DNA of 64,000 bases from a bacterium (lineage in GTDB: Bacteria > Patescibacteriota > Patescibacteriia > UBA9934 > GWF2-40-263): positions 613 through 64,612 of the forward strand of contig JAJYIV010000002.1 of assembly GCA_021789915.1 (NCBI GenBank), in the 5' to 3' direction. The position numbers and the translations under genes were made by a program. The stretch's first letter is position 1; the number at the start of each line of letters is the position of its first letter. Below, piece after piece: positions 18,940 through 42,074 of this stretch. The notes beneath the pieces were generated by a model. It had not been told where the DNA came from. It ran no database searches and saw only the letters and a program-made list of their open reading frames with translations.

Positions 18940-19051
18940 CTGTCTTCCTCCGAGGAAGCCTGGGCACCCGGGAATCGGATGCGCAGGCGGCCGAAGGAAG
19001 ACGGCGGACCATAACAATAAAACCGCCGCGTGTCAATCAAAAGCCGTCCGC

Positions 19052-19477
19052 TTACGACGCCAGCCCGAGCTTTGCCTCGACGACCTGCAAACGCCCCTCG
19101 AAGCGATCCATCCGCAAGGTCGGCGCGACCAGCTCCTGCTCGATCGTCAGCTGCAGCCGCGCCACCTGGTCGCTCACGGCAAGGACTTCCTGACGAACGT
19201 CTTGAAGATCCTCCTTTGTCGCGAAACGGTCGAAATCGTCTTTCGTGGCAAAGTTCTGCAGATCGTCTTTCGTGGCAAAGTTCTGCAGATCGTCTTTCGT
19301 GGCAAAGTTCTGCAGATCGTCTTTCGTGGCAAAACGGTCGAAATCGGCCTTCATTGCCACATTCTCCTTTACGAAACCGATGAATTCGTGCATTTCCGAC
19401 GTTAAACCTTCGACCTTCCGTTCAAGGCCATCGAACTTCTGCGCCAGCTGATTTGTCGTCAGGTGTTCCTCACTCAT
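19052..19477 (-). CDS. Coiled-coil protein with four tandem 9-aa repeats (FATKDDLQN), low-GC gene
   Basis: 141 aa; encoded by 27-nt tandem DNA repeats; GC clearly below flanking sequence. Confidence 0.6.
   Translation of the reverse strand: MSEEHLTTNQLAQKFDGLERKVEGLTSEMHEFIGFVKENVAMKADFDRFATKDDLQNFATKDDLQNFATKDDLQNFATKDDFDRFATKEDLQDVRQEVLAVSDQVARLQLTIEQELVAPTLRMDRFEGRLQVVEAKLGLAS
19215..19345. repeat. 27-nt tandem repeat (GATCGTCTTTCGTGGCAAAGTTCTGCA, about 4.5 copies) inside a CDS
   Basis: Near-perfect direct copies seen directly. Confidence 0.8.
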
Positions 19478-19595
19478 ATATCGCTTCGAAGTATACGTCC
19501 TGAATTAAATCGCTTCAAACGAAAAGATCCCGCGTCTGTTTCAGACAGGGGATCTTTTGTCTCTGTGTGCATTTAAGCGGAAAAAACGGGTTTCG

Positions 19596-20252
19596 TCAAT
19601 CGTCGTGTGTGGATATCTTCCGCTCCTTCAACAAGATAAGCGCCCGTCCAGACAACGGATTCTTAAGAATGCCTTCGATCTTCCACGCCGCCTCCTTGAA
19701 ATGAATGCCTTCCCCTTCCAATTGCTTCTTCCATCGAGTGAGCGGCACCGCATGCAGTCCGCCGTCTAAAGCGGCGGCAGGCGCATCGATTTCTTCCAGG
19801 TCCATCACGTGAATGGCGATGCCGCCTTCCCGTAACGCATTCCATGAATTCATCAGGACGTCCCACTGCTTTTCCGTCTCGATGAACTTCAAGAAGACGT
19901 GCGCGTACGTGATGTCGTACGGCCCGCCGGGGAAAGGTTTTGTCGCGTCATGTCGAATGACGCCAGGCGCCCCAGCAAGATGCTCGATAGCAATGTCCGA
20001 GGTCGTGAGATCGACGTCTCGACCCAACAATGACGAAAAGATGCGACGATGGTGATCGATGAAGCGCCTGTCCCCGCATCCGACGACGAAGATGCGAACG
20101 TGTTCATGCGCAGGATGACAAGGAACAACCGAAAAGATAGTTTTCAATTCCCGTTCCTTGATGTCTGCTCGGCGTTGAATTTCCGCATCGGACAGCGCCG
20201 CATACTTTTTGTGATAGTCGGAGAGGGCCATATGAATTTTTCTATTGCGCAT
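19596..20252 (-). CDS. Class I SAM-dependent methyltransferase-like protein (low-GC)
   Basis: Motif I VVGCGDRRF, acidic end of beta-2 (DLTTSD), motif IV-like DITYAHVFL. Confidence 0.5.
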   Translation of the reverse strand: MRNRKIHMALSDYHKKYAALSDAEIQRRADIKERELKTIFSVVPCHPAHEHVRIFVVGCGDRRFIDHHRRIFSSLLGRDVDLTTSDIAIEHLAGAPGVIRHDATKPFPGGPYDITYAHVFLKFIETEKQWDVLMNSWNALREGGIAIHVMDLEEIDAPAAALDGGLHAVPLTRWKKQLEGEGIHFKEAAWKIEGILKNPLSGRALILLKERKISTHDD

Positions 20253-20253
20253 T

Positions 20254-21864
20254 CTATTTCGCGACCGCCTTCAGGAACGCCCTGAACAGCGGATGCGGCT
20301 TCAGGGGCGAAGACTGGAACTCGGGATGGAATTGCACGCCGACGAAAAACGGATGATCCTTCAGCTCGATGATCTCCACGAGCTGACCGTCCGGAGACGT
20401 GCCGGCGACCACCAGCCCCGCCTTCGTCAGCGTCTCGCGGTACGCGTTGTTGAACTCGTAGCGGTGGCGGTGGCGTTCGCGGATCGCCGCCGTCCCGTAG
20501 GCGTGGCGGCTCACCGTCCCGGGCTTCAGCGCGCAGTCCCAGCTGCCCAGGCGCATCGTCGCGCCGTATTCGCGGTTCAACAGCTTTTTTTCCTGATCAG
20601 GCATGATGTGGACGACGGCGTGCGGCGCCTGCGGATCGATTTCCGTCGTATGCGCGCCCTTCAGTTCGCACGCGTCGCGGGCGAATTCGACGGCGGCCAG
20701 CTGCATGCCGTAGCAGAGGCCGAAGTACGGAACTTTTTTCTCCCGCGCGTAACGGATCGCCGCGATCACGCCTTCGATGCCGCGCGAACCGAAGCCGCCC
20801 GGCACCAGGACGCCGTCATAGCCCGCAAGGATTTTCTCCGCTCCGTGCTTTTCGATGTCCGCCGCGTCGATCCACGTGATCGCCGGCTTGCGGCTGATGG
20901 CCCACGCGGCGTGCTTCACCGCTTCGATGACGGAGATGTACACGTCGGAAAGCATGAAATCGCCGACGGCGAAATACTTGCCGACGATGGCGATCTTCAC
21001 GTCCCTCTTTGCGCGCCGGATCGCGTCGACGACGTCGCGCCACGGCTTCAAATCGGCGCGCTTCGGCTTGAGGCCGAGCCGCGCGAGCAGCCGCTGCGCG
21101 AAGCGCTGGTCTTCCAGGATGAGCGGCACCTCGTAGATCGATCCGCAATCCGGGTTGCTGATGACGTCCTCCTTGGCGACGTTGCAGAACAGCGCGATGC
21201 GCTCCTTGCGGCGGCCGTCCATCGCCTGCGACGAGCGGCCGACGACGAAATCCGGCTCGATGCCCATGCCGTTCAGCATGCGGACGCTCTGCTGCACCGG
21301 CTTCGTCTTCATCTCGCCCAGCGCGCCGGGAATCGGCAGGTACGCGACATGCACGTGCGCGACGTTCTTCGGCTCGCGGCGGCCGAGCAGGCGCGCCGCC
21401 TCGAAGAAGATGCCGTTCTGGTACTCGCCGACGGTGCCGCCCAGCTCGACGACGCAGATGTCGGCGCCCTGCCCGCCCAGCTTGAAGCGGCGGATGATCT
21501 CGTCGGTGACGTGCGGAATCGCCTCGACATCTTCGCCTTCGTAGGCAAACGCGCGCTCGCGGCGCAGCACTTCCGCGTACACCTGGCCCGTCGTCGCGTA
21601 CTGCGCGCGATGCAGCGGCCGGCCGATGAAGCGCTCGTAGTTGCCCAGGTCCTGGTCGGTTTCCAACCCGTCTTCCGTGACGAACACTTCCCCGTGTTCC
21701 GAAGGGCGTATGGTGCCGGCGTCCTGGTTCAGGTACATGTCCACCTTCATCGGCGCGACGCGGTAGCCGCGCGCTTCCAAGAGCGCCGACAACGACGCGG
21801 CGGTGATGCCTTTGCCGAGGCCGGAGATGACGCCGCCGGAGACGAACACGTACTTGGTGGGCAT
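20254..21864 (-). CDS. pyrG: CTP synthase
   Basis: 536 aa; N-terminal synthase domain plus C-terminal glutamine amidotransferase (GLCYGMQ, HPEF). Confidence 0.9.
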   Translation of the reverse strand: MPTKYVFVSGGVISGLGKGITAASLSALLEARGYRVAPMKVDMYLNQDAGTIRPSEHGEVFVTEDGLETDQDLGNYERFIGRPLHRAQYATTGQVYAEVLRRERAFAYEGEDVEAIPHVTDEIIRRFKLGGQGADICVVELGGTVGEYQNGIFFEAARLLGRREPKNVAHVHVAYLPIPGALGEMKTKPVQQSVRMLNGMGIEPDFVVGRSSQAMDGRRKERIALFCNVAKEDVISNPDCGSIYEVPLILEDQRFAQRLLARLGLKPKRADLKPWRDVVDAIRRAKRDVKIAIVGKYFAVGDFMLSDVYISVIEAVKHAAWAISRKPAITWIDAADIEKHGAEKILAGYDGVLVPGGFGSRGIEGVIAAIRYAREKKVPYFGLCYGMQLAAVEFARDACELKGAHTTEIDPQAPHAVVHIMPDQEKKLLNREYGATMRLGSWDCALKPGTVSRHAYGTAAIRERHRHRYEFNNAYRETLTKAGLVVAGTSPDGQLVEIIELKDHPFFVGVQFHPEFQSSPLKPHPLFRAFLKAVAK

Positions 21865-22397: not shown

Positions 22398-22485
22398 AGC
22401 ACGGCGGCAGTATACGCCCGCGCGGCGTCAGCGGGAAATCGCGGGCGGTGGATAACGCGGACGGGGACAGTTCTATTTCCGTTTG

Positions 22486-22652
22486 ACATCTGCGTGTTCG
22501 CCGGTCTTCCCGCCTTCTGTACATCCGAGAAGGACGGCATGGTCGTCACCCTCCCCTACCCGTTAGCGAACGGTCGGGAGAATTCTGTCAGCTTCCGACT
22601 CCGCGGGAAGACAACGGTCCTCGCCGCGCCGCACATCGTCTACGTCCACTGA
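22486..22652 (+). pseudogene. 3' fragment (about 55 codons) of a paralog of the small membrane protein gene at 24740..25207; no plausible start codon
   Basis: ICVFAGLPAFCTSEKDGMVVTL...APHIVYVH aligns with ACVFGGLPAICETSKRGTDVAVFL...APHIIYVP; the downstream 81 bp is nearly identical. Confidence 0.55.
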
Positions 22653-22706
22653 CGCACGCGCGTCCGCGCGGTTCGTGAGCCCGACGCTCACGGCCGCCGC
22701 GGGCGC
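22625..22706. repeat. Left copy of an 81-bp direct repeat (4 mismatches to 25181..25261)
   Basis: GCGCCGCACATCGTCTACGTCCACTGACGCACGCGCGTCCGCGCGGTTCGTGAGCCCGACGCTCACGGCCGCCGCGGGCGC; contains palindromes GTGAGCCCGACGCTCAC and CGCGCGTCCGCGCG. Confidence 0.8.
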
Positions 22707-22749
22707 GATCTTTTTTGTAAACCAAACCCCGCCAGGTTTCTTTTTTGCC

Positions 22750-23205
22750 TCATGTCACTTCGTCGCGAACCGCCGCCAGCAAATCTTCCAACCGCGCGAA
22801 CAGCGGCAACCGGAACCGGTCGCAAACCATCTCGACGTTTCCCTTGCGCCAGAATCCGTCCGGGCAGCACACCAGGACGTGCTTGTCCTTCACCAAGCCG
22901 AGCTCGAGCAGGCTGATCGGACTCTTGGTCGCCGGATCGAAATAAAACGCGACGACGTCCGCCCGGTCGAGTCCGTCCATCTCCCACGTGACCTGCCGGT
23001 TGAACTCGGGGTTCGCCATGGATTGCTTCCAGGAGGCGTCCCATGCGGCACGCCGCGGATTCAGCACGGTCGCGTCGGTGTCCGCGAGCGCGGCGACCGC
23101 TTTCGCCTGCCAGGGTTCGGCGGCCCCCATCTCGATGCTGCCGGCGAGGAAGACGACGGGGGACGCGGCGTCGGCGAAGGAATCGGGCGGCTGGATGTGG
23201 CGCAT
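22750..23205 (-). CDS. Nucleoside 2-deoxyribosyltransferase-like protein
   Basis: 151 aa, PVVFLAGSIE...VCCPDGFW Rossmann-like NDT fold; the rest of the listed 487-aa ORF is GC-driven read-through. Confidence 0.55.
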   Translation of the reverse strand: MRHIQPPDSFADAASPVVFLAGSIEMGAAEPWQAKAVAALADTDATVLNPRRAAWDASWKQSMANPEFNRQVTWEMDGLDRADVVAFYFDPATKSPISLLELGLVKDKHVLVCCPDGFWRKGNVEMVCDRFRLPLFARLEDLLAAVRDEVT

Positions 23206-23343
23206 AGGAAGGAGACGGCCGTCTTTGTACCACGGCGCCCCGATCGGCGCGAGCCGCGGATGGCAGGCGGCGATTGACAAGGTGCGAAAAAAGACCGAAG
23301 GTACCCGCGGTTCATCGCGGCCGCAAGCCGCACGGAGGGAACC

Positions 23344-24144
23344 ATGATTTCCGAGACGAAGATCGAGATCGTCACGCACGTAACGATAGAGGAACAGCCC
23401 GGCCGGAACGTCTGCGCGAACGACTATCGCAGCATTCTGCCACGACCCAACGACGACGGCATCCTGCTCGACCGGGAGACGGTCGAGCGCTTGTTCGCCG
23501 CGACGGATCTCGATGCGTTCCTCTCGTCCCTGCCGGGAATCTCGACGGATACGTGGCACCGTCACGCCGTCCTCGCGAACGTCATCAAGTTCTCGGAACC
23601 GACGGACGGAAACGCGTTCGGCATCGTCCTCGCCTGGACGACGAAGCGCCACCCCGCCTTCGGCGGCGATCCGACGAGCATGATGGATTACGCCATCGGC
23701 GTGCTCCCCGTGCCGACCGAAACGGCGGCGGTGGCCGCGAAGCTCTTCGCGCGCCGCTCGCTCCTGGCGGACTTGAAACTCGACGACCGCGGCCAGCGCG
23801 AACGGCAGGAGGAAATCCTGAAGGCCATCGGATGGGACGACGGAGCCGAGACCGCGCAGGCGCTGCGCGCGCTGCGCGAGGAGATGATGAGACGCTTGGA
23901 CGAGCTCACAAAAGCGCTCGAGGCGCGCGAGCGGGCGCGGGTGCAGGCCGTCCTCGGCTTGGCCGGCGTGTCGAGCGCTCAGCTCGACGCGCGCGTCGCG
24001 GACGTCGATGGTCAGCTCGACGCGGCGTTCAATGCGATGGCGACGGATCCGAAGCGGCTCGAACCTACGGCGCTCGCGAAGTGCGAGCTCGACATCTACG
24101 GCGCCGTTCCGCCCATCCTGCACGCAAGACTCACGGCCCAATAG
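23344..24144 (+). CDS. Hypothetical protein (266 aa)
   Basis: SD GGAGGG 6 nt upstream of ATG; GC3-rich; no family recognised. Confidence 0.5.
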   Translation: MISETKIEIVTHVTIEEQPGRNVCANDYRSILPRPNDDGILLDRETVERLFAATDLDAFLSSLPGISTDTWHRHAVLANVIKFSEPTDGNAFGIVLAWTTKRHPAFGGDPTSMMDYAIGVLPVPTETAAVAAKLFARRSLLADLKLDDRGQRERQEEILKAIGWDDGAETAQALRALREEMMRRLDELTKALEARERARVQAVLGLAGVSSAQLDARVADVDGQLDAAFNAMATDPKRLEPTALAKCELDIYGAVPPILHARLTAQ

Positions 24145-24241
24145 CCGTTCTCGACGCCTCTCCGCGAGGCGTTTTTCTTTTCGGGTTCGAAAAAGCTCCA
24201 ACGGGATCGCCACCGCGGCGGGTATCGCTTTCTTTGGAGCT

Positions 24242-24411
24242 AAAGAAAGATTGAGACCTCTGAAAAACTGATGGATTTTCGTTGTCAGCCAAAGGCTGAT
24301 CAGCCTCTGGCTGAAATGGGCTGCCGAGCCCCGCGAACCCTACTGAAACGTAGGGAGAGCGGGGTCGGCGGGCGCCCATGAAACGAAAAGACGCCGTTTT
24401 GCAGAGGTCTC
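24242..24411. ncRNA. Structured element B with 10-bp terminal inverted repeats GAGACCTCTG...CAGAGGTCTC (homologous to element A)
   Basis: Compensatory changes relative to A: CAGCC-UCU-GGCUG versus CCGGC-UCU-GCCGG, and UUUUCGUU/AACGAAAA versus UGUUCGU/ACGAACA; conserved CUGAAAAAC-YGAUGG, AAUGG and UUUUGCAGAGGUCUC segments. Confidence 0.55.
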
Positions 24412-24420
24412 GATTCTTTG

Positions 24421-24456
24421 CAAACCAAACCCCGCCTGGCCTGCAGGCGGGGCGGT
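24421..24456 (-). terminator. Rho-independent terminator on the minus strand (CCCCGCCTGCAGGCCAGGCGGGG + UUUGGUUUG)
   Basis: Perfect GC stem followed by a U-rich tract on the minus strand. Confidence 0.6.
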
Positions 24457-24467
24457 TGGTCCCGGGT

Positions 24468-24543
24468 CGTGGTGGACCTGATGGGAGTCGAACCCACATC
24501 TTATGGTGCTAACTCAGGCGAGGTTACCGTTTCCTCCACAGGC
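24468..24543 (-). ncRNA. tRNA-like element with encoded CCA and a non-canonical anticodon arm (tRNA pseudogene or tRNA-like small RNA)
   Basis: Acceptor GGGCCUG/CAGGUCC (one GU pair), D-arm GAGG-AAACGGUAA-CCUC, T-arm GUGGG-UUCGACU-CCCAU, discriminator A plus CCA; the 21-nt anticodon region cannot form a 5-bp stem. Confidence 0.45.
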
Positions 24544-24654
24544 CCCTATCCCTTCCCCGGGTCATTGGATAACGAAAAATCCCTCAGGCCCTTTCGGACC
24601 ATGGGGGATTCTTCTAGCACCAGGAGCAAGCCGTATGCTCACCTGAGTGACTCA

Positions 24655-24683
24655 AGTAAAACAGATATTTCCGTATTTGTCAA
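24655..24683 (-). promoter_or_regulatory. Sigma-70-like promoter on the minus strand (-35 TTGACA, 17-nt spacer, -10 TTTACT) driving the tRNA-like transcript
   Basis: seen directly; predicted transcript about 220 nt, from about 24648 down to the terminator at 24421. Confidence 0.45.
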
Positions 24684-24739
24684 TCGTCGCGTGTGGACAA
24701 AATGGCGGGCGGAGGTTGACAAATGACTGGGAAGGGGCC

Positions 24740-25207
24740 ATGTTTATGCGTCCCACGCTCGGCGTTCGGGACGAACAAGCCACCTTCCGGCCCTGCGGGG
24801 GCCTCACACAGAAGGAGAAAGCCGTGATCCACAGAATCGTGATTGGAACAGTCGTCGCCGTCGGTGTTCTCTACCTCGCAAAGCCCATCGTCGGGTACTT
24901 CCACGAACAGGACGTGAAGGTACGCGCCGAGACCGACGTCGTGTGCGCGCACGTGACCCCGGCCAACTGGGGCGGCGAGGACAGCGCAACCTGCCGTAAG
25001 CTCGTGGCCAAGTTCATCAACATCGACCTCAAGCCGAAGGCCTGCGTCTTCGGCGGACTCCCGGCCATTTGCGAGACGTCGAAGAGGGGCACCGATGTCG
25101 CCGTGTTCCTCAAACGAAAAGACGGGCCGCTCCAGTACAGCCTGCTGCCCATCATGACCAAGGAACAGCTGGCGAACTCGGCGCCGCACATCATCTACGT
25201 CCCCTGA
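24740..25207 (+). CDS. Small membrane-anchored protein (155 aa)
   Basis: SD GGGAAGGGG upstream of ATG; single TM segment IVIGTVVAVGVLYLA; its 3' end and downstream 81 bp are duplicated at 22486..22706. Confidence 0.55.
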   Translation: MFMRPTLGVRDEQATFRPCGGLTQKEKAVIHRIVIGTVVAVGVLYLAKPIVGYFHEQDVKVRAETDVVCAHVTPANWGGEDSATCRKLVAKFINIDLKPKACVFGGLPAICETSKRGTDVAVFLKRKDGPLQYSLLPIMTKEQLANSAPHIIYVP

Positions 25208-25261
25208 CGCACGCGCGTCCGCGCGGTTCGTGAGCCCAACGCTCACGGCCGCCGCGGGCGC
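25181..25261. repeat. Right copy of the 81-bp direct repeat
   Basis: see 22625..22706. Confidence 0.8.
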
Positions 25262-25604
25262 TTCTTTATTTTGAATCGAGAGATCCCTTCGGCGCCATGC
25301 TCCGTCCGCCGTATCATTCAGTCCCGCGGCACCATTGCCCCGCGGACGGAACGGGCCCGGCACAAGCGAGCCGTTCAGAGCCGCATCGGCCCGGCTCGCG
25401 ATGACGGAGACCGTCCGGCCAAGCGGGGCCTGGTGCCAAGATCTTTCTTTCTCCGGTTTCTTGGGATCGGCCAAGAAACCGGACCGCCGGAGGCTTCCGG
25501 CTTAAGAGGGTCTCGTGATCCCTCGCCCCGCCTGCATGCAGGCGGGGTCGGGACGACACAAGAAGGATGGCGCGCGTCGCCGGAGGCCTCCGGCGAAAAA
25601 AGAT

Positions 25605-26861
25605 TTATTCATACCGCAGCGCCTCGACGGGATCCAGGCGCGCGGCGTTGCGCGCGGGCAGGACGCCGAACACGATGCCGATGGCGGCGGAGACGCCGAC
25701 GCCGAGCAGGATGGCGGAAGGCGGGACGGCGAAGGTCCATGCCAACTGGTTGGCGCGCGCCACGGCGGCCACGATCCACCCGAGCAGGGCGCCCCAGGCG
25801 ATGCCCAAAGAGCCGCCGAGCACGGTCAGCAGCACGGCTTCCAGCAGGAACTCGCGCAGGATGGCGCCGCGCGTGGCACCGACGGCCTTCTTGAGGCCGA
25901 TCTCCGCCGTCCGTTCCGTCACGACGACGTACATGATGTTCATGATGCCCACCCCGCCCACCAGCAGCGAGATGGCGGCGATCGCGATCAGCAGGGCCGT
26001 GATGCCACTGAAGATCACGTTGAACGTATCAAGCGCCTGCGTCTGCGTCTGCACCTCGAAATCGTCCTTCGCCGGATCCGTGATCCGGTGATTGCGCTCC
26101 AGCGTGCTCCGGATTTCCGCCGCCGTCGCGTCGCCGAGCGACGTGTCGCGCATCTGCACGATGCCGACCGAGAGATAGTCGATGCCGAGCATCTTCTTCT
26201 GCGCCGTGGCGAGCGGGATGTAGGCGGAGCTGTCCGCCGTTCCGCCGAACGCCAGCCCGCCCTGCGGGGCGTACACGCCGATCACCTGGAAATTCAGCGT
26301 GCCCAGACGCACCAGCCGGCCGACCGGCTCGTTCTGGCCGAAGAGATCCTTGGCCAGGTCGCTGCCGAGGATGATGACCTGCGCCGCGCCCGCATCCTCC
26401 GCGGGCGTGTAGAAACGCCCTTCCTGCAGCGTGTGCTGGTCGATGCGGAAGCGCTCGGCCCCGGCGCCGTAGTAGATGACGCTTTTCTGATGGTTGCCCT
26501 CGCTGGCCTCCGCCTGGCCCGTCACCATGCCGTAGGCGTCCACGACATTCGGCAAACGGCGGATATCGTCCAAATCGCGCGTCTTGAACGTGTTGATGAC
26601 GATGCCCGTCACGCCGCCGCCCACGCCGGCCGAGAACTTCTGCGCGCGGCTCTTCGTCGTCGGCGGCACGCGCGTGCTGACGAACAGCGTGTTGCTGCCC
26701 AGGGCGTTCACCTGCGACGTGACGAGGCTGCGGAAGCCCGCGCCCGCGGACAGCACCAAGATCACCGTCGAAATGCCGATGACGATGCCGAGGGTCGTCA
26801 AGACCGTCCGGACGGGATTGGACGCGAGGCCGCGGAGGGATTGGCGAAAGGCGGGGAACAT
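25605..26861 (-). CDS. ABC transporter permease, MacB/FtsX-like (YknZ-like)
   Basis: 418 aa; N-terminal TM segment, large extracytoplasmic domain, C-terminal FtsX 3-TM bundle. Confidence 0.75.
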   Translation of the reverse strand: MFPAFRQSLRGLASNPVRTVLTTLGIVIGISTVILVLSAGAGFRSLVTSQVNALGSNTLFVSTRVPPTTKSRAQKFSAGVGGGVTGIVINTFKTRDLDDIRRLPNVVDAYGMVTGQAEASEGNHQKSVIYYGAGAERFRIDQHTLQEGRFYTPAEDAGAAQVIILGSDLAKDLFGQNEPVGRLVRLGTLNFQVIGVYAPQGGLAFGGTADSSAYIPLATAQKKMLGIDYLSVGIVQMRDTSLGDATAAEIRSTLERNHRITDPAKDDFEVQTQTQALDTFNVIFSGITALLIAIAAISLLVGGVGIMNIMYVVVTERTAEIGLKKAVGATRGAILREFLLEAVLLTVLGGSLGIAWGALLGWIVAAVARANQLAWTFAVPPSAILLGVGVSAAIGIVFGVLPARNAARLDPVEALRYE

Positions 26862-26949: not shown

Positions 26950-28212
26950 TCATTCATATCTCAGCGCCTCGATCGGATCCAGCCGCGCGGCCTTGAGCGC
27001 CGGATACAATCCGAAGCCGACGCCGGTCAGGACGGAGATGACCAGCGCCAGGACGACGGAAAACGGCGAGACGACATACGCCCACTCATAGCCCAGCGCG
27101 TGCATGACGAGAGCGGCTGCGAGCGCGATCGCGGCCCCGAGCGCGACGCCGACGAGCCCGCCTGCGCCCGTGAGCGCCGCGGCCTCCAGCAGGAATTGCC
27201 GTGCGATGGCGCCGTTGGTGGCGCCGACGGCCTTGCGCAGCCCGATCTCGCGCGTGCGCTCGGCCACCGTCACCAGCATGATGTTCAGGATGCCGACGCC
27301 GCCGACCACCAGCGAGATGGCCGCCATCGCGGCAAGGAACAGGCTGAGAGCCGACGTGATGGATGACAGGATGTTCATGATGTCGGCCTGGCTGCGCACC
27401 GTGAAATCCTCCTGGTCCTGCGTCCGCACGTGATGGCGTTCGTCCATCACCCGCGTGACGTCCGCGATGGCCTGCGGCACGTGCGCGGCGGCGTCGACCT
27501 TCAGGTCGATGAGCTGCAGATGGCGGATGCCGAGCAGCTGCTGCTGGCCGATCGGCAGCGGGAGGAAGACCTGGTCGTCCATGTTCACCACGGCGATGTT
27601 GCCGCGCGGATTGATCACGCCGACGACGCGCAGCGGCACGCCGCCGGCTTGCGCCTGCGCCGCGTTGCGCACCTTGATGACCTGCCCCACCGGATCCACG
27701 CCGCGGCTGCCGAACAATTCGTCGGCCACGGTGGAGCCGAGCACGGCGACGTTGGCGCCTGCGTCCGCCTGGGCGACGCTGAAATACGTCCCTTCGCGCA
27801 TGGTGAACGTCAGCACGTCCGGATGATAGCCGTCCGTGCCGAAAAAGTTGGTGTCGATGCTCTGATTGCCCCACGTCACCGTGGCCGTCCCGAGCACCAT
27901 CGCATCCGCCGCCTTGATGTGAGGCACGCGGCGCAAGGCGTCCGCGTCCGCGTTCGTCAGCGTCGTGACGACGATGCCGAAGAGCTGGACGGGCGGGCCC
28001 TTCTCGTTGCTCTTGCCCGGCTGCACGCTGAGCAAGTCGCTCCCAAGCTTGGTCACCTGCCCCAGGATGAGAGACTGCGCGCCGGCGCCCAATGCCAAAA
28101 TCACGATGACGCCGGAGACGCCGATCACGATGCCGAGCATGGTCAGCAAGGACCGCCCCTTGCGCGCCAACAGGGTGCGGGAGACGAGGCCGAACGTGTC
28201 GCGGACGTTCAT
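26950..28212 (-). CDS. ABC transporter permease, MacB/FtsX-like (second copy)
   Basis: 420 aa, same architecture as 25605..26861. Confidence 0.75.
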   Translation of the reverse strand: MNVRDTFGLVSRTLLARKGRSLLTMLGIVIGVSGVIVILALGAGAQSLILGQVTKLGSDLLSVQPGKSNEKGPPVQLFGIVVTTLTNADADALRRVPHIKAADAMVLGTATVTWGNQSIDTNFFGTDGYHPDVLTFTMREGTYFSVAQADAGANVAVLGSTVADELFGSRGVDPVGQVIKVRNAAQAQAGGVPLRVVGVINPRGNIAVVNMDDQVFLPLPIGQQQLLGIRHLQLIDLKVDAAAHVPQAIADVTRVMDERHHVRTQDQEDFTVRSQADIMNILSSITSALSLFLAAMAAISLVVGGVGILNIMLVTVAERTREIGLRKAVGATNGAIARQFLLEAAALTGAGGLVGVALGAAIALAAALVMHALGYEWAYVVSPFSVVLALVISVLTGVGFGLYPALKAARLDPIEALRYE

Positions 28213-40470: not shown

Positions 40471-41595
40471 TCAGGAGACGAGGGGACGCGCGATCGCGGC
40501 GGCGAGCGCTTCCATCCCCTGCCCCGTCGCCGCGGACACCGGCGCCACGGCCGCGAAGGCCCCCGCGTCGAACGCCGGGCCAAGGCGTCGCCGCCAATCG
40601 GCGCCGGCGGCGTCGATCTTGTTCACCGCGAGCACGCGCGGCGTTTCCGCGGCGCCCAAGCGCTTCAGGATCTCGTCCACCACGCGCAGATGGTCCGCCG
40701 CATGCGCGTCGGCGGCATCCACGACCTGCACGAGCACGTCGGCGTCCGCCGCCTCCGAGAGCGTCGATGCGAACGCGTTCAAGAGCTCGGGCGGCAGATT
40801 TTGGATGAAGCCGATCGTGTCGGAGACGAGCACCTGGCGCGGCGGCTCGTTCTCTTTCCTTGCGACGTACAGCGAGCCAACGCGCGTGTCGAGCGTGGCG
40901 AAGAGCTCGTCGGCCGCATACTCGCGCCGGCGCGTGAGCCGGTTCAGCAGCGACGTCTTGCCGGCGTTCGTGTAGCCGACGAGCGCCGCCGTGGGCAGGC
41001 CCTGCCGCCGACGCCGTTCCTGGCGCGCGCGACGCATCGTCTGATACCGCGCGAGCTTCTCCCCGACCGCTTCGGCGCGCTCGCGCAGGTGCCGGCGCAT
41101 GATCTCCGTGTTCGTCTCGCCCTTGCCGCGCGTACCGGTGCCGCCGCCCTGGCGCGACAATTCCAGGCCCATGCCGTAGATGCGCGGGCCCATGTGCCGG
41201 ATGCCGGCCAACTCGATCTCCAGCCGCGCCTCCGTCGTGCGCGCGTGCTTGGCGAAGATCTTCAAGATGAGATCGAGGCGGTCCCACACCTGGAGGCCGG
41301 CCGGGCGCAGCGCTTCCGAGAGAAGATAGACTTGCCGCGGCTTGAGCCGGTCGTTGATGACCACGAGCGCCGCCCCGAGCCGCTTCCCTTCCTCGGCCAG
41401 CTGCTCGATCTTTCCCGTACCGAGGAATGTCGCCGGATGCGGCGCCGCGCGGCGCTGATGCGTCTTCACGACGACGATGCCGCCGTACGTGCGCACGAGT
41501 TCTTCCAATTCCTGCAGCCGATCCAAACTCTCCGCCTTCGTGAGCCGCGGCGGGATCAGATCGACGAGAATGGTTTTGAGGAGACGGTCGGCCAT
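40471..41595 (-). CDS. hflX: GTPase HflX
   Basis: N-terminal HflX domain plus G-domain (GYTNAGKTSLLN, DTIGF, NKID). Confidence 0.85.
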   Translation of the reverse strand: MADRLLKTILVDLIPPRLTKAESLDRLQELEELVRTYGGIVVVKTHQRRAAPHPATFLGTGKIEQLAEEGKRLGAALVVINDRLKPRQVYLLSEALRPAGLQVWDRLDLILKIFAKHARTTEARLEIELAGIRHMGPRIYGMGLELSRQGGGTGTRGKGETNTEIMRRHLRERAEAVGEKLARYQTMRRARQERRRRQGLPTAALVGYTNAGKTSLLNRLTRRREYAADELFATLDTRVGSLYVARKENEPPRQVLVSDTIGFIQNLPPELLNAFASTLSEAADADVLVQVVDAADAHAADHLRVVDEILKRLGAAETPRVLAVNKIDAAGADWRRRLGPAFDAGAFAAVAPVSAATGQGMEALAAAIARPLVS

Positions 41596-42074
41596 GCGGA
41601 GACAGCGTTTCAAAAAGATTGACGGGCGTCAAACGAAAAAAGCCCGGCGGTTCGCTCAACCGCCGGGGCGTGGACGTCGTCGCGGCGGTTTGCGTCATCT
41701 GCCGAACGCTCGACGCCGTTCCCGTGCCTGCGCGTTCAAAAGCGCCGTCAGCTCTTCGGCCATCGTACGATCGTCCTCGGCCACGACGGGGACTGACGCC
41801 GACGGCAGGTCCGGATGCCCCAAGTAATCGAGGAAGTGGGTTACGCCTCCGTCTCGCCGACGGACGACGGTTTCCCGCGGGACGAAAAACGTCTGCTTCG
41901 TCTTGCCCGTGCTTCGCCTCCTTTCTAGACGCGGATACGTGCCTGCACAAAGGTACCCGACGCAGCATGTTCCGACAAACTCGCGTCCGCGCCCATCAAA
42001 AATCCCCGCGCGAGCAGTGCCAAACAAAAAACGCTCCGTCCTTGTCCGGTGAGAGACGAGAACGGAGCCGTCGT

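Follow-up and report, generated by a model that had tools for sequence, protein, structure and literature searches.

Integrative elements classically use the 3' ends of genes as attachment (att) sites, as e14 does at icd and ICESt3 at fda. The borders of e14 and phage 21 at icd, and those of ICESt3 and the cis-mobilizable elements (CIMEs) at fda, have a direct repeat over the last codons of a gene and a same-orientation partial copy of the gene at the other end, with identity highest in a short block; CIMEs have no integrase. Concerted evolution (gene conversion) likewise leaves a short near-identical tract, synonymous sites included, in otherwise diverged paralogues. Each of these features is also found at the locus described here, an 81-bp direct repeat between the ribosomal protein gene rplI and an ATP-binding cassette (ABC) transporter operon in a patescibacterial genome (NCBI GenBank assembly GCA_021789915.1). 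We analyzed 64,000 nucleotides (nt) of contig JAJYIV010000002.1 (positions 613 to 64,612 of the forward strand) and refer to this whole stretch as the window; all coordinates given below are positions within it. A first-pass annotation of the window had interpreted the repeat copies as the attL- and attR-like ends of an integrative island or, alternatively, as the product of an old duplication.

Results

A young repeat at the ends of two old gene copies

The repeat was confirmed, with positions 22626-22706 and 25181-25261 being identical at 78 of 81 sites (96%) at a spacing of 2555 bp. If two small gaps are allowed, the similarity runs on through a T-rich tract to 22716 and 25271 (93.5% over 92 columns; ~91 nt). 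The 64-kb window contained no third copy, even at ≤3 mismatches, and shuffled sequences gave an expectation of 0. In other assemblies of the same strain (ENA ERZ27233565 and Logan SRR13170411), the two copies are carried on separate contigs with the same differences between them; the repeat is therefore not an artifact of assembly or scaffolding. Exact-pattern scans of IMG/VR and JGI metagenome contigs yielded no match to the repeat core, and the repeat was not conserved at any other locus or in any collection that we retrieved.

The first-pass annotation had described the 81 bp as noncoding, with two palindromes. This holds for the larger part, which consists of a hairpin and a U tract; the first 27 nt are coding and comprise the last 8 codons and the stop codon of a gene. 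The palindromes are present, although they are not separate structures but the outer and inner stems of one interrupted hairpin of 21-22 bp. The same organization (i.e., 8 codons plus stop, hairpin, U tract) was found in the left copy (DR1-L, 22626..22716, + strand) and the right copy (DR1-R, 25181..25271, + strand), whose hairpins have one difference, a G-to-A change in the loop of DR1-R. The predicted folding energies were -38.4 and -40.5 kcal/mol (z scores, -3.3 and -4.1), and 0 of 200 shuffles were as stable. The hairpins are followed on the + strand by CUUUUUUG and UUCUUUAUUUUG. This is the makeup of a Rho-independent terminator, namely, a stable GC-rich hairpin directly after a stop codon and a U tract on the transcribed strand. 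A simple terminator scanner missed the structure because its stem and loop limits were narrower. The guess in the first-pass annotation that the repeat has a terminator role is thus supported by the hairpin and the + strand U tract, and the predicted function of the repeat is transcription termination of + strand genes.

Each copy forms the end of a coding sequence. The right copy closes a gene for a small, probably exported or membrane-anchored protein (24824..25207, + strand), which likely starts at GTG 24824 behind AAGGAG; the longest open reading frame (ORF) begins at ATG 24740. The protein is an ORFan: no homologue was detected among 5.8 billion proteins, and a full HMMER scan returned one weak match to a repeat protein. 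The left copy closes a 55-codon truncated homologue of the C-terminal half of this protein (22485..22652, + strand), which keeps the motif CVFxGLPAxC and has a coding-like G+C content at third codon positions (GC3, 0.82). Missing from it are the ~72 N-terminal residues of the full protein, with the membrane anchor among them. The fragment had been reported to be devoid of a start codon; in-frame GTG 22494 and ATG 22540 exist, and gene callers give a 37-aa ORF at 22540-22652.

The identity of ~50-60% originally stated for the duplicated coding part did not carry weight at the nucleotide level (52%, barely above the shuffle baseline of 47%), but homology at the protein level was highly significant. 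Translated in frame, 22485-22625 follows the C-terminal half of the small protein collinearly, with 15 of 44 residues identical. With the repeat excluded, the Smith-Waterman score was 59 (shuffles, 22.4 +/- 4.2; 0 of 20000 reached 59), and the other two frames of the fragment scored 16-17. The left fragment is thus genuinely homologous to the small exported protein, although the homology is ancient.

The age of the repeat differs from that of its flanks. In the codon alignment upstream of the repeat, positions 1, 2, and 3 are identical at 25/44, 27/44, and 12/44 codons, respectively. Third positions are saturated and first and second positions are kept, which indicates a long divergence of the flanking codons under protein-level selection. 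Inside the repeat, the corresponding values are 8/9, 8/9, and 9/9, with both coding differences being nonsynonymous. The hairpin stem differs at 0 of 44 positions, without any compensatory change, and the sole difference in the hairpin is in the loop. Identity steps sharply from ~50% to 96% at the repeat boundary, and the steps are sharp at both edges. Given the sharp step and the 9/9 third positions, the common ancestor of the repeat block must be much younger than that of the flanks. The repeat block is young, not conserved. A young block beside old flanks requires recent copying, i.e., gene conversion, a duplication junction, or site-specific recombination. The suggestion that an old duplication was maintained by selection on the noncoding block is accordingly contradicted by the 9/9 identical third positions and 0/44 stem changes, set against 12/44 in the flanking codons.

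The repeats lie within a wider lineage-specific block

The host is a high-GC member of the Patescibacteria (candidate phyla radiation) whose CTP synthase has its best match (74%) in metagenome-assembled genomes of Candidatus Uhrbacteria, pointing to an Uhrbacteria-like genome. The block that contains the repeats (22430..25604; ~3.2 kb) is bounded on the left by rplI (ribosomal protein L9; 21951..22397, - strand; Pfam L9 N- and C-terminal domains), beyond which lies pyrG (20254-21864, - strand). On the right it extends to the stop codon of macB1 (25605..26861, - strand; MacB_PCD plus FtsX permease), which is followed in tandem by a second MacB/FtsX permease gene, macB2 (26950-28212, - strand), and then by the rest of an ABC/HlyD-type operon.

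The main relative available for comparison, locus L088, is a short Logan contig (SRR22388089) whose L9 protein is 69% identical to that of the window. It has a 75-bp spacer in place of the block: a macB1 orthologue lies directly upstream of rplI, in the same orientation, and ends 75 bp before it. Over 120 residues, the product of this MacB gene is 76% identical to that of macB1, versus 45-70% for macB2. In the alignment of the window with L088, homology is kept through the -10-like TATACT box of rplI and through the macB1 stop codon and is gone between them; the TATACT box and ~25 nt upstream of it can be aligned. In a second relative (L012), HlyD, ABC, and MacB genes are followed by 265 bp and then pyrG. 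From these two gene orders, the ancestral order in the clade was the ABC-transporter operon, then (rplI), then pyrG. A pyrG-based genome scan found closest relatives at ≤74%, and their gene order upstream of rplI is unrelated; the closest L9 relative (L087) has only 38 bp present upstream of rplI.

The first-pass annotation had proposed an insertion next to rplI, and L088 does lack this DNA. The missing DNA (~22430-25604) is, however, wider than the span between the repeats: it holds both repeat copies, the full small-protein gene, and a 340-nt hairpin-rich spacer, and neither the repeat nor the small gene resembles the 75-bp spacer of L088. Both repeats and the small gene thus lie inside the absent span, so the repeats are not the insertion junctions, and the small gene, itself part of the DNA absent from L088, is not a preexisting target. 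L088 did not show the predicted empty site, in which the membrane-protein gene would directly follow rplI, nor was a single att copy at the end of a target gene found there, with L088 being distant (L9, 69% amino acid identity).

The contents listed for the region between the copies, i.e., a nucleoside 2-deoxyribosyltransferase (NDT)-like gene, a hypothetical gene, a structured element (element B), and a tRNA-like gene, were all present. Pfam, NCBIfam, and PHROG searches of the three island proteins identified no integrase, recombinase, or transposase. In the remainder of the window, no recombinase was seen among called genes at ~1-9.6 kb and 11.9-35.2 kb (precomputed Pfam) or among 20 ORFs at 36-62 kb; the scan was not exhaustive, its scope being the 64-kb window, and it revealed none in the block, none within ~10 kb on either side, and none among the main ORFs scanned elsewhere. 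The island genes have 63-70% G+C and a GC3 of 0.86-0.87, similar to the flanking genes. The attL/attR reading is therefore not supported by boundaries, recombinase, empty site, or composition, all of which were tested.

Two other recombination systems were rejected as candidates. An integron cassette array was dismissed on the basis of the absence of an integrase and of the mixed orientation of the three genes, with RNA genes, between the repeats. The R''/R' core consensus of attC sites is RYYYAAC / GTTRRRY, and no GTTRRRY core was seen by inspection. A Xer/dif reading of the hairpin was rejected by inspection only.

At the left edge of the block, the window has TATACT 12 nt before the rplI ATG, without a Shine-Dalgarno sequence (22398-22430); at the corresponding place (positions 380-436), L088 has 36 nt that include GAGGAAAAA. 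The promoter and leader of rplI may have been reshaped by the insertion.

Element B belongs to a dispersed family of MITE-like repeats

Element B (24253..24410, + strand) is an imperfect palindrome whose ends are the terminal inverted repeats GAGACCTCTG / CAGAGGTCTC; on either side of it is a copy of GATT, a 4-bp target-site duplication (24249-24252 and 24411-14). In a BLAST search of the noncoding island DNA against the retrieved loci, 30 of 30 bases matched in a distant relative (L048), and a 19-mer scan detected 29 JGI metagenome loci of the same family. The set analyzed consisted of the window copy, L048, and the JGI loci (L284-L311). Members are imperfect palindromes of ~130 nt with very conserved internal loops and variable tips, and the terminal inverted repeats GRGAYCTCTG ... 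CAGAGRTCYC are present in every full copy. RNAalifold predicted 52 pairs for the family, of which 18 show compensatory substitutions; on the + strand, several U-G pairs do not vary.

Among 22 distinct copies, the flanking 4-bp direct repeat was perfect in 10 and agreed at 3 or more of its 4 positions in 16. These repeats are target-site duplications, and element B hence transposes. The genomic surroundings of the copies are unrelated to one another; many copies immediately precede the start codon of a housekeeping gene (dnaK, tsf, and pnp) or lie beside tRNA genes. Two copies occur on one contig (L287/L302) and two in L048, and the element has no coding capacity. Other assemblies of the strain break inside the window copy (at 24282 and 24330/24357) because the element is multicopy. 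Element B is a member, resembling a miniature inverted-repeat transposable element (MITE), of a dispersed Patescibacteria repeat family. The presence of such an element with its GATT duplication means that the spacer accepts insertions.

Nested in the window copy at 24285-24316 is a 30-32-nt module of two short hairpins (GTCAGCCAAAGGCTGATCAGCCTCTGGCTGAA). The module recurs in another element B copy and also alone (two copies in L302; L297/L300, ~1631-1662), and in this distribution it behaves as if it were a separate tiny insertion element.

Rfam contains no family for element B, and no description of it turned up in the literature that we searched. Hammerhead, riboswitch, 6S, signal recognition particle, and Y-RNA identities were discarded, as there was no Rfam match and the element is multicopy, dispersed, and bordered by target-site duplications. 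No cognate transposase or autonomous element with the same ends was noticed in the retrieved loci, beyond which no search aimed at such a partner was made.

Genes and hairpins of the block

The NDT-like gene (22750..23205, - strand; 151 aa; PF15891/phrog_30579, E = 2e-47) encodes a protein that is 46-58% identical to the products of genes on 74 IMG/VR viral contigs and is of phage type. It is followed by a hypothetical ORFan of 266 aa (23344..24144, + strand) with its own terminator hairpin (24153-24173). No homologue of this protein was present in 5.8 billion proteins; a match to T7 gp14 was set aside as insignificant (E = 0.059).

The tRNA-like gene (24470..24545, - strand; 76 nt) was called as a divergent tRNA-Ala(AGC) by ARAGORN and matched the Rfam tRNA family (RF00005) at 39.8 bits (cutoff, 29), compared with 60-69 bits for the other tRNAs of the window. 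A G3:U70 pair, A73, and an encoded CCA end are present, and the acceptor, D, and T arms are sound. The anticodon stem is weak, with 3 of 5 pairs and two mismatches; as an anticodon, AGC is unusual in bacteria. The gene may represent a tRNA of the island or phage type or may mimic a tRNA. A transfer-messenger RNA (tmRNA) or two-piece tmRNA was considered and rejected (RF00023, 29.8 bits versus a cutoff of 47; no ARAGORN tmRNA call); the model aligns at its two ends only, with 34 nt in place of 324, so the gene is not a tmRNA. A generic tRNA 3'-end pattern recovered only ordinary tRNA and tmRNA ends in viral contigs. Upstream of the gene (24575-24700, - strand), we observed a promoter-like TTGACA-17-TTTACT and, ~40 nt before the tRNA-like 5' end, a stable hairpin followed by UUUUU (AAUCCCCCAUGGUCCGAAAGGGCCUGAGGGAUUUUU). 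The latter may represent an attenuating leader or a small RNA in its own right.

The tRNA-like gene ends in a terminator hairpin with a U tract (24415..24462, - strand), the distal part of which (D4-R, 24414-24439) is duplicated at the left end of the block. The left counterpart (D4-L, 22707..22736; 26-30 nt) is a relic copy of the U tract and distal half-stem (23/26 plus a GAT lead-in) and has no pairing partner on the left. It lies directly after the left repeat copy, such that the left junction reads gene end, terminator, tRNA-like terminator. The position of this relic directly after DR1-L shows that a rearrangement has occurred inside the block. The left junction would arise from a past duplication or circularization of a unit comprising both the tRNA-like gene and the small gene along with the terminator or from entry of the NDT/ORFan segment at that terminator.

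The right end of the block is a hairpin-rich spacer (25440..25604) before the macB1 stop codon, with fold z scores of ~-5.6 to -6 on both strands. Two palindromic 17-18-mers (CGCCGGAGGC[T/C]TCCGGC) enclose a CCCCGCCTGCATGCAGGCGGGG hairpin. The palindromes (CGCCGGAGGCYTCCGGC) are near-identical, and the CCCCGCCTGCATGCAGGCGGGG hairpin resembles the terminator of the tRNA-like gene.

The motif common to the small ORFan protein and its truncated copy, C...F.GLP.(I/V)C, recurs many times in a giant secreted protein (P0011; 3394 aa) with a type IX secretion system (T9SS) sorting domain. The resemblance of this protein to the Cys motif of the small protein is weak and suggests that the latter may be a small immunoglobulin (Ig)-like surface module.

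Elsewhere in the window, a low-GC patch at 19000-20400 (47-55%, versus 63-72% around it) covers an ORF without a Pfam family (19596-20252, - strand), and near 19279-19289 another assembly differs from the window by ~10 bp in length. ARAGORN also called a 94-nt tRNA-Ala(GGC) at 40523-40616 (- strand), within an HflX-like GTPase ORF (40474-41613); there was no confirmation by Rfam, and the call is probably a false positive.

Discussion

The account that we favor, and consider modestly probable, is that of a lineage-specific, accreted spacer in which the ends of two old paralogues were recently homogenized or copied across a terminator hairpin. From the observations above, we infer the copying mechanism and the order of events as follows. 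An intergenic block of ~3.2 kb would have accreted between the MacB-type ABC-transporter operon and rplI-pyrG. It would have come to hold a small exported-protein gene in two copies of ancient divergence, with the left one cut down to its last 55 codons and the right one intact, and, between and around them, a phage-type NDT-like gene, an ORFan, a MITE insertion, and a tRNA-Ala-like gene. Well after the coding sequences had diverged, the 3' end of the gene family (8 codons plus terminator) would have been copied from one to the other. The copying would likely have proceeded by gene conversion or concerted evolution, with the long GC hairpin as the nucleation point, or else the repeat would mark the junction of a duplicative rearrangement. 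The repeat itself serves as a terminator, and we regard a role as a recombinase site as unlikely.

Several points weigh against this account. Gene conversion of the RecA type needs flanking identity, and with a left flank at ~52% its initiation would be hard unless homogenization were repeated. A sharp-edged block of identity over the 3' end of a gene is also what the att sites of an integrative element look like. The sole informative relative is distant (69% in L9) and silent on the order of events and on intermediate states, and more repeat copies or a trans-acting recombinase may lie outside the 64-kb window.

The att-like appearance leads to an alternative that we regard as unlikely, though it deserves to be set out in full: the repeats would be attL and attR of a defective, integrase-less, cis-mobilizable element of 2555 bp that integrated at the 3' end and terminator of a resident small gene, brought in a full-length copy next to attP, and left the resident to lose its 5' part later. 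It would account for the sharp edges of the near-identical block, for the diverged but collinear gene sequence 5' of it, and for the location of the block at a gene 3' end, as well as for a cargo that includes the phage-type NDT-like gene and the divergent tRNA and for the absence of the region from a relative. That relative, however, lacks the target gene together with both repeat copies, and no attB is demonstrated by it. Elements of this kind usually replace the 3' end of their target; here, with the intact gene downstream of the fragment, the layout is reversed, which calls for an additional deletion event. Neither the element nor the scanned ORFs of the window encode an integrase or excisionase, the G+C content is host-like, and the core sequence has no match in viral or JGI metagenome contigs. 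Lower still we place the idea that the repeats are working recombination sites of an integrase-less 2.55-kb cassette, carrying a tRNA-Ala mimic, the NDT-like gene, and the small surface protein, which would loop out and reenter via the terminator hairpin with the help of a host recombinase in trans or by homologous exchange. If this were true, terminator hairpins at gene ends would be portable att sites in reduced Patescibacteria genomes.

Two explanations remain. The repeat might be a small dispersed mobile or REP-like (repetitive extragenic palindromic) terminator element with many genomic sites, whose two copies here are merely neighbors; the same spacer does host a dispersed MITE and other recurring GC hairpins. 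We rate this as more improbable than the cassette, since only two copies occur in 64 kb with ≤3 mismatches allowed, both in the same register at the ends of homologous ORFs with the last 8 codons in common, and they have neither target-site duplications nor matches elsewhere. Least probable of all is that the gene was duplicated long ago, in tandem or segmentally, and that the noncoding block has remained near-identical because it is a functional RNA or DNA element under strong purifying selection. The very stable, terminator-like hairpin is indeed likely to be functional, and the coding flanks show that the gene duplication itself is old. Selection on a hairpin, though, tolerates compensatory and loop changes, and yet not one stem position differs; the contrast of third positions between the block and the next 44 codons indicates recent ancestry, not constraint; and the element is not conserved in other retrieved loci or collections.

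In its broader outline, the locus exemplifies ordinary genome plasticity, in which a variable spacer beside a conserved ribosomal-protein gene gathered ORFans, a phage-type gene, a divergent tRNA, and a MITE. It also offers a worked example of a short young identity block within an old paralogy; third-codon positions and an uncompensated hairpin stem sufficed here to separate "young" from "conserved." The MITE family is a more novel observation than the repeat. Mobile DNA is thought to be scarce in the reduced genomes of Patescibacteria. The element B family is well defined, shows strong covariation, and is spread through Patescibacteria metagenomes, where it breaks assemblies and may affect the expression of neighboring genes.

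Compared with the borders of the e14/ICESt3 type, the present locus differs in that the partial copy lies upstream, not downstream, of the intact gene, that no integrase was found, and that neither the gene nor either repeat is present at the related "empty" site. Outside the block, homology is ancient and recognizable at the protein level only, rather than broken by a few substitutions. Relative to known cases of gene conversion, the tract is very short (~91 nt) and consists mostly of a terminator hairpin, with almost no flanking identity for RecA-mediated exchange. As in Rho-independent terminators in general, the GC-rich hairpin comes right after the stop codon and the U-rich tract is on the coding strand; the stem of DR1 is unusually long (21-22 bp, interrupted). 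The tRNA-like gene resembles the divergent tRNAs borne by phages and islands in its low score, its alanine identity pair (G3:U70), and its encoded CCA. Like a tmRNA tRNA-like domain, it matches the two ends of the tmRNA model through its acceptor and T arms, but it is only 76 nt long and has no tag reading frame or pseudoknots.

Element B is distinguished from the ERIC, Correia (CREE/NEMIS), and RUP families of MITEs by its Patescibacteria host, by a 4-bp duplication instead of TA, and by the absence of sequence similarity and of an Rfam family. In other respects, it parallels them: all are imperfect palindromes of ~130 bp with terminal inverted repeats and short target-site duplications, which are multicopy and intergenic, often lie just upstream of start codons, vary in size through internal insertions, and show high conservation across species.

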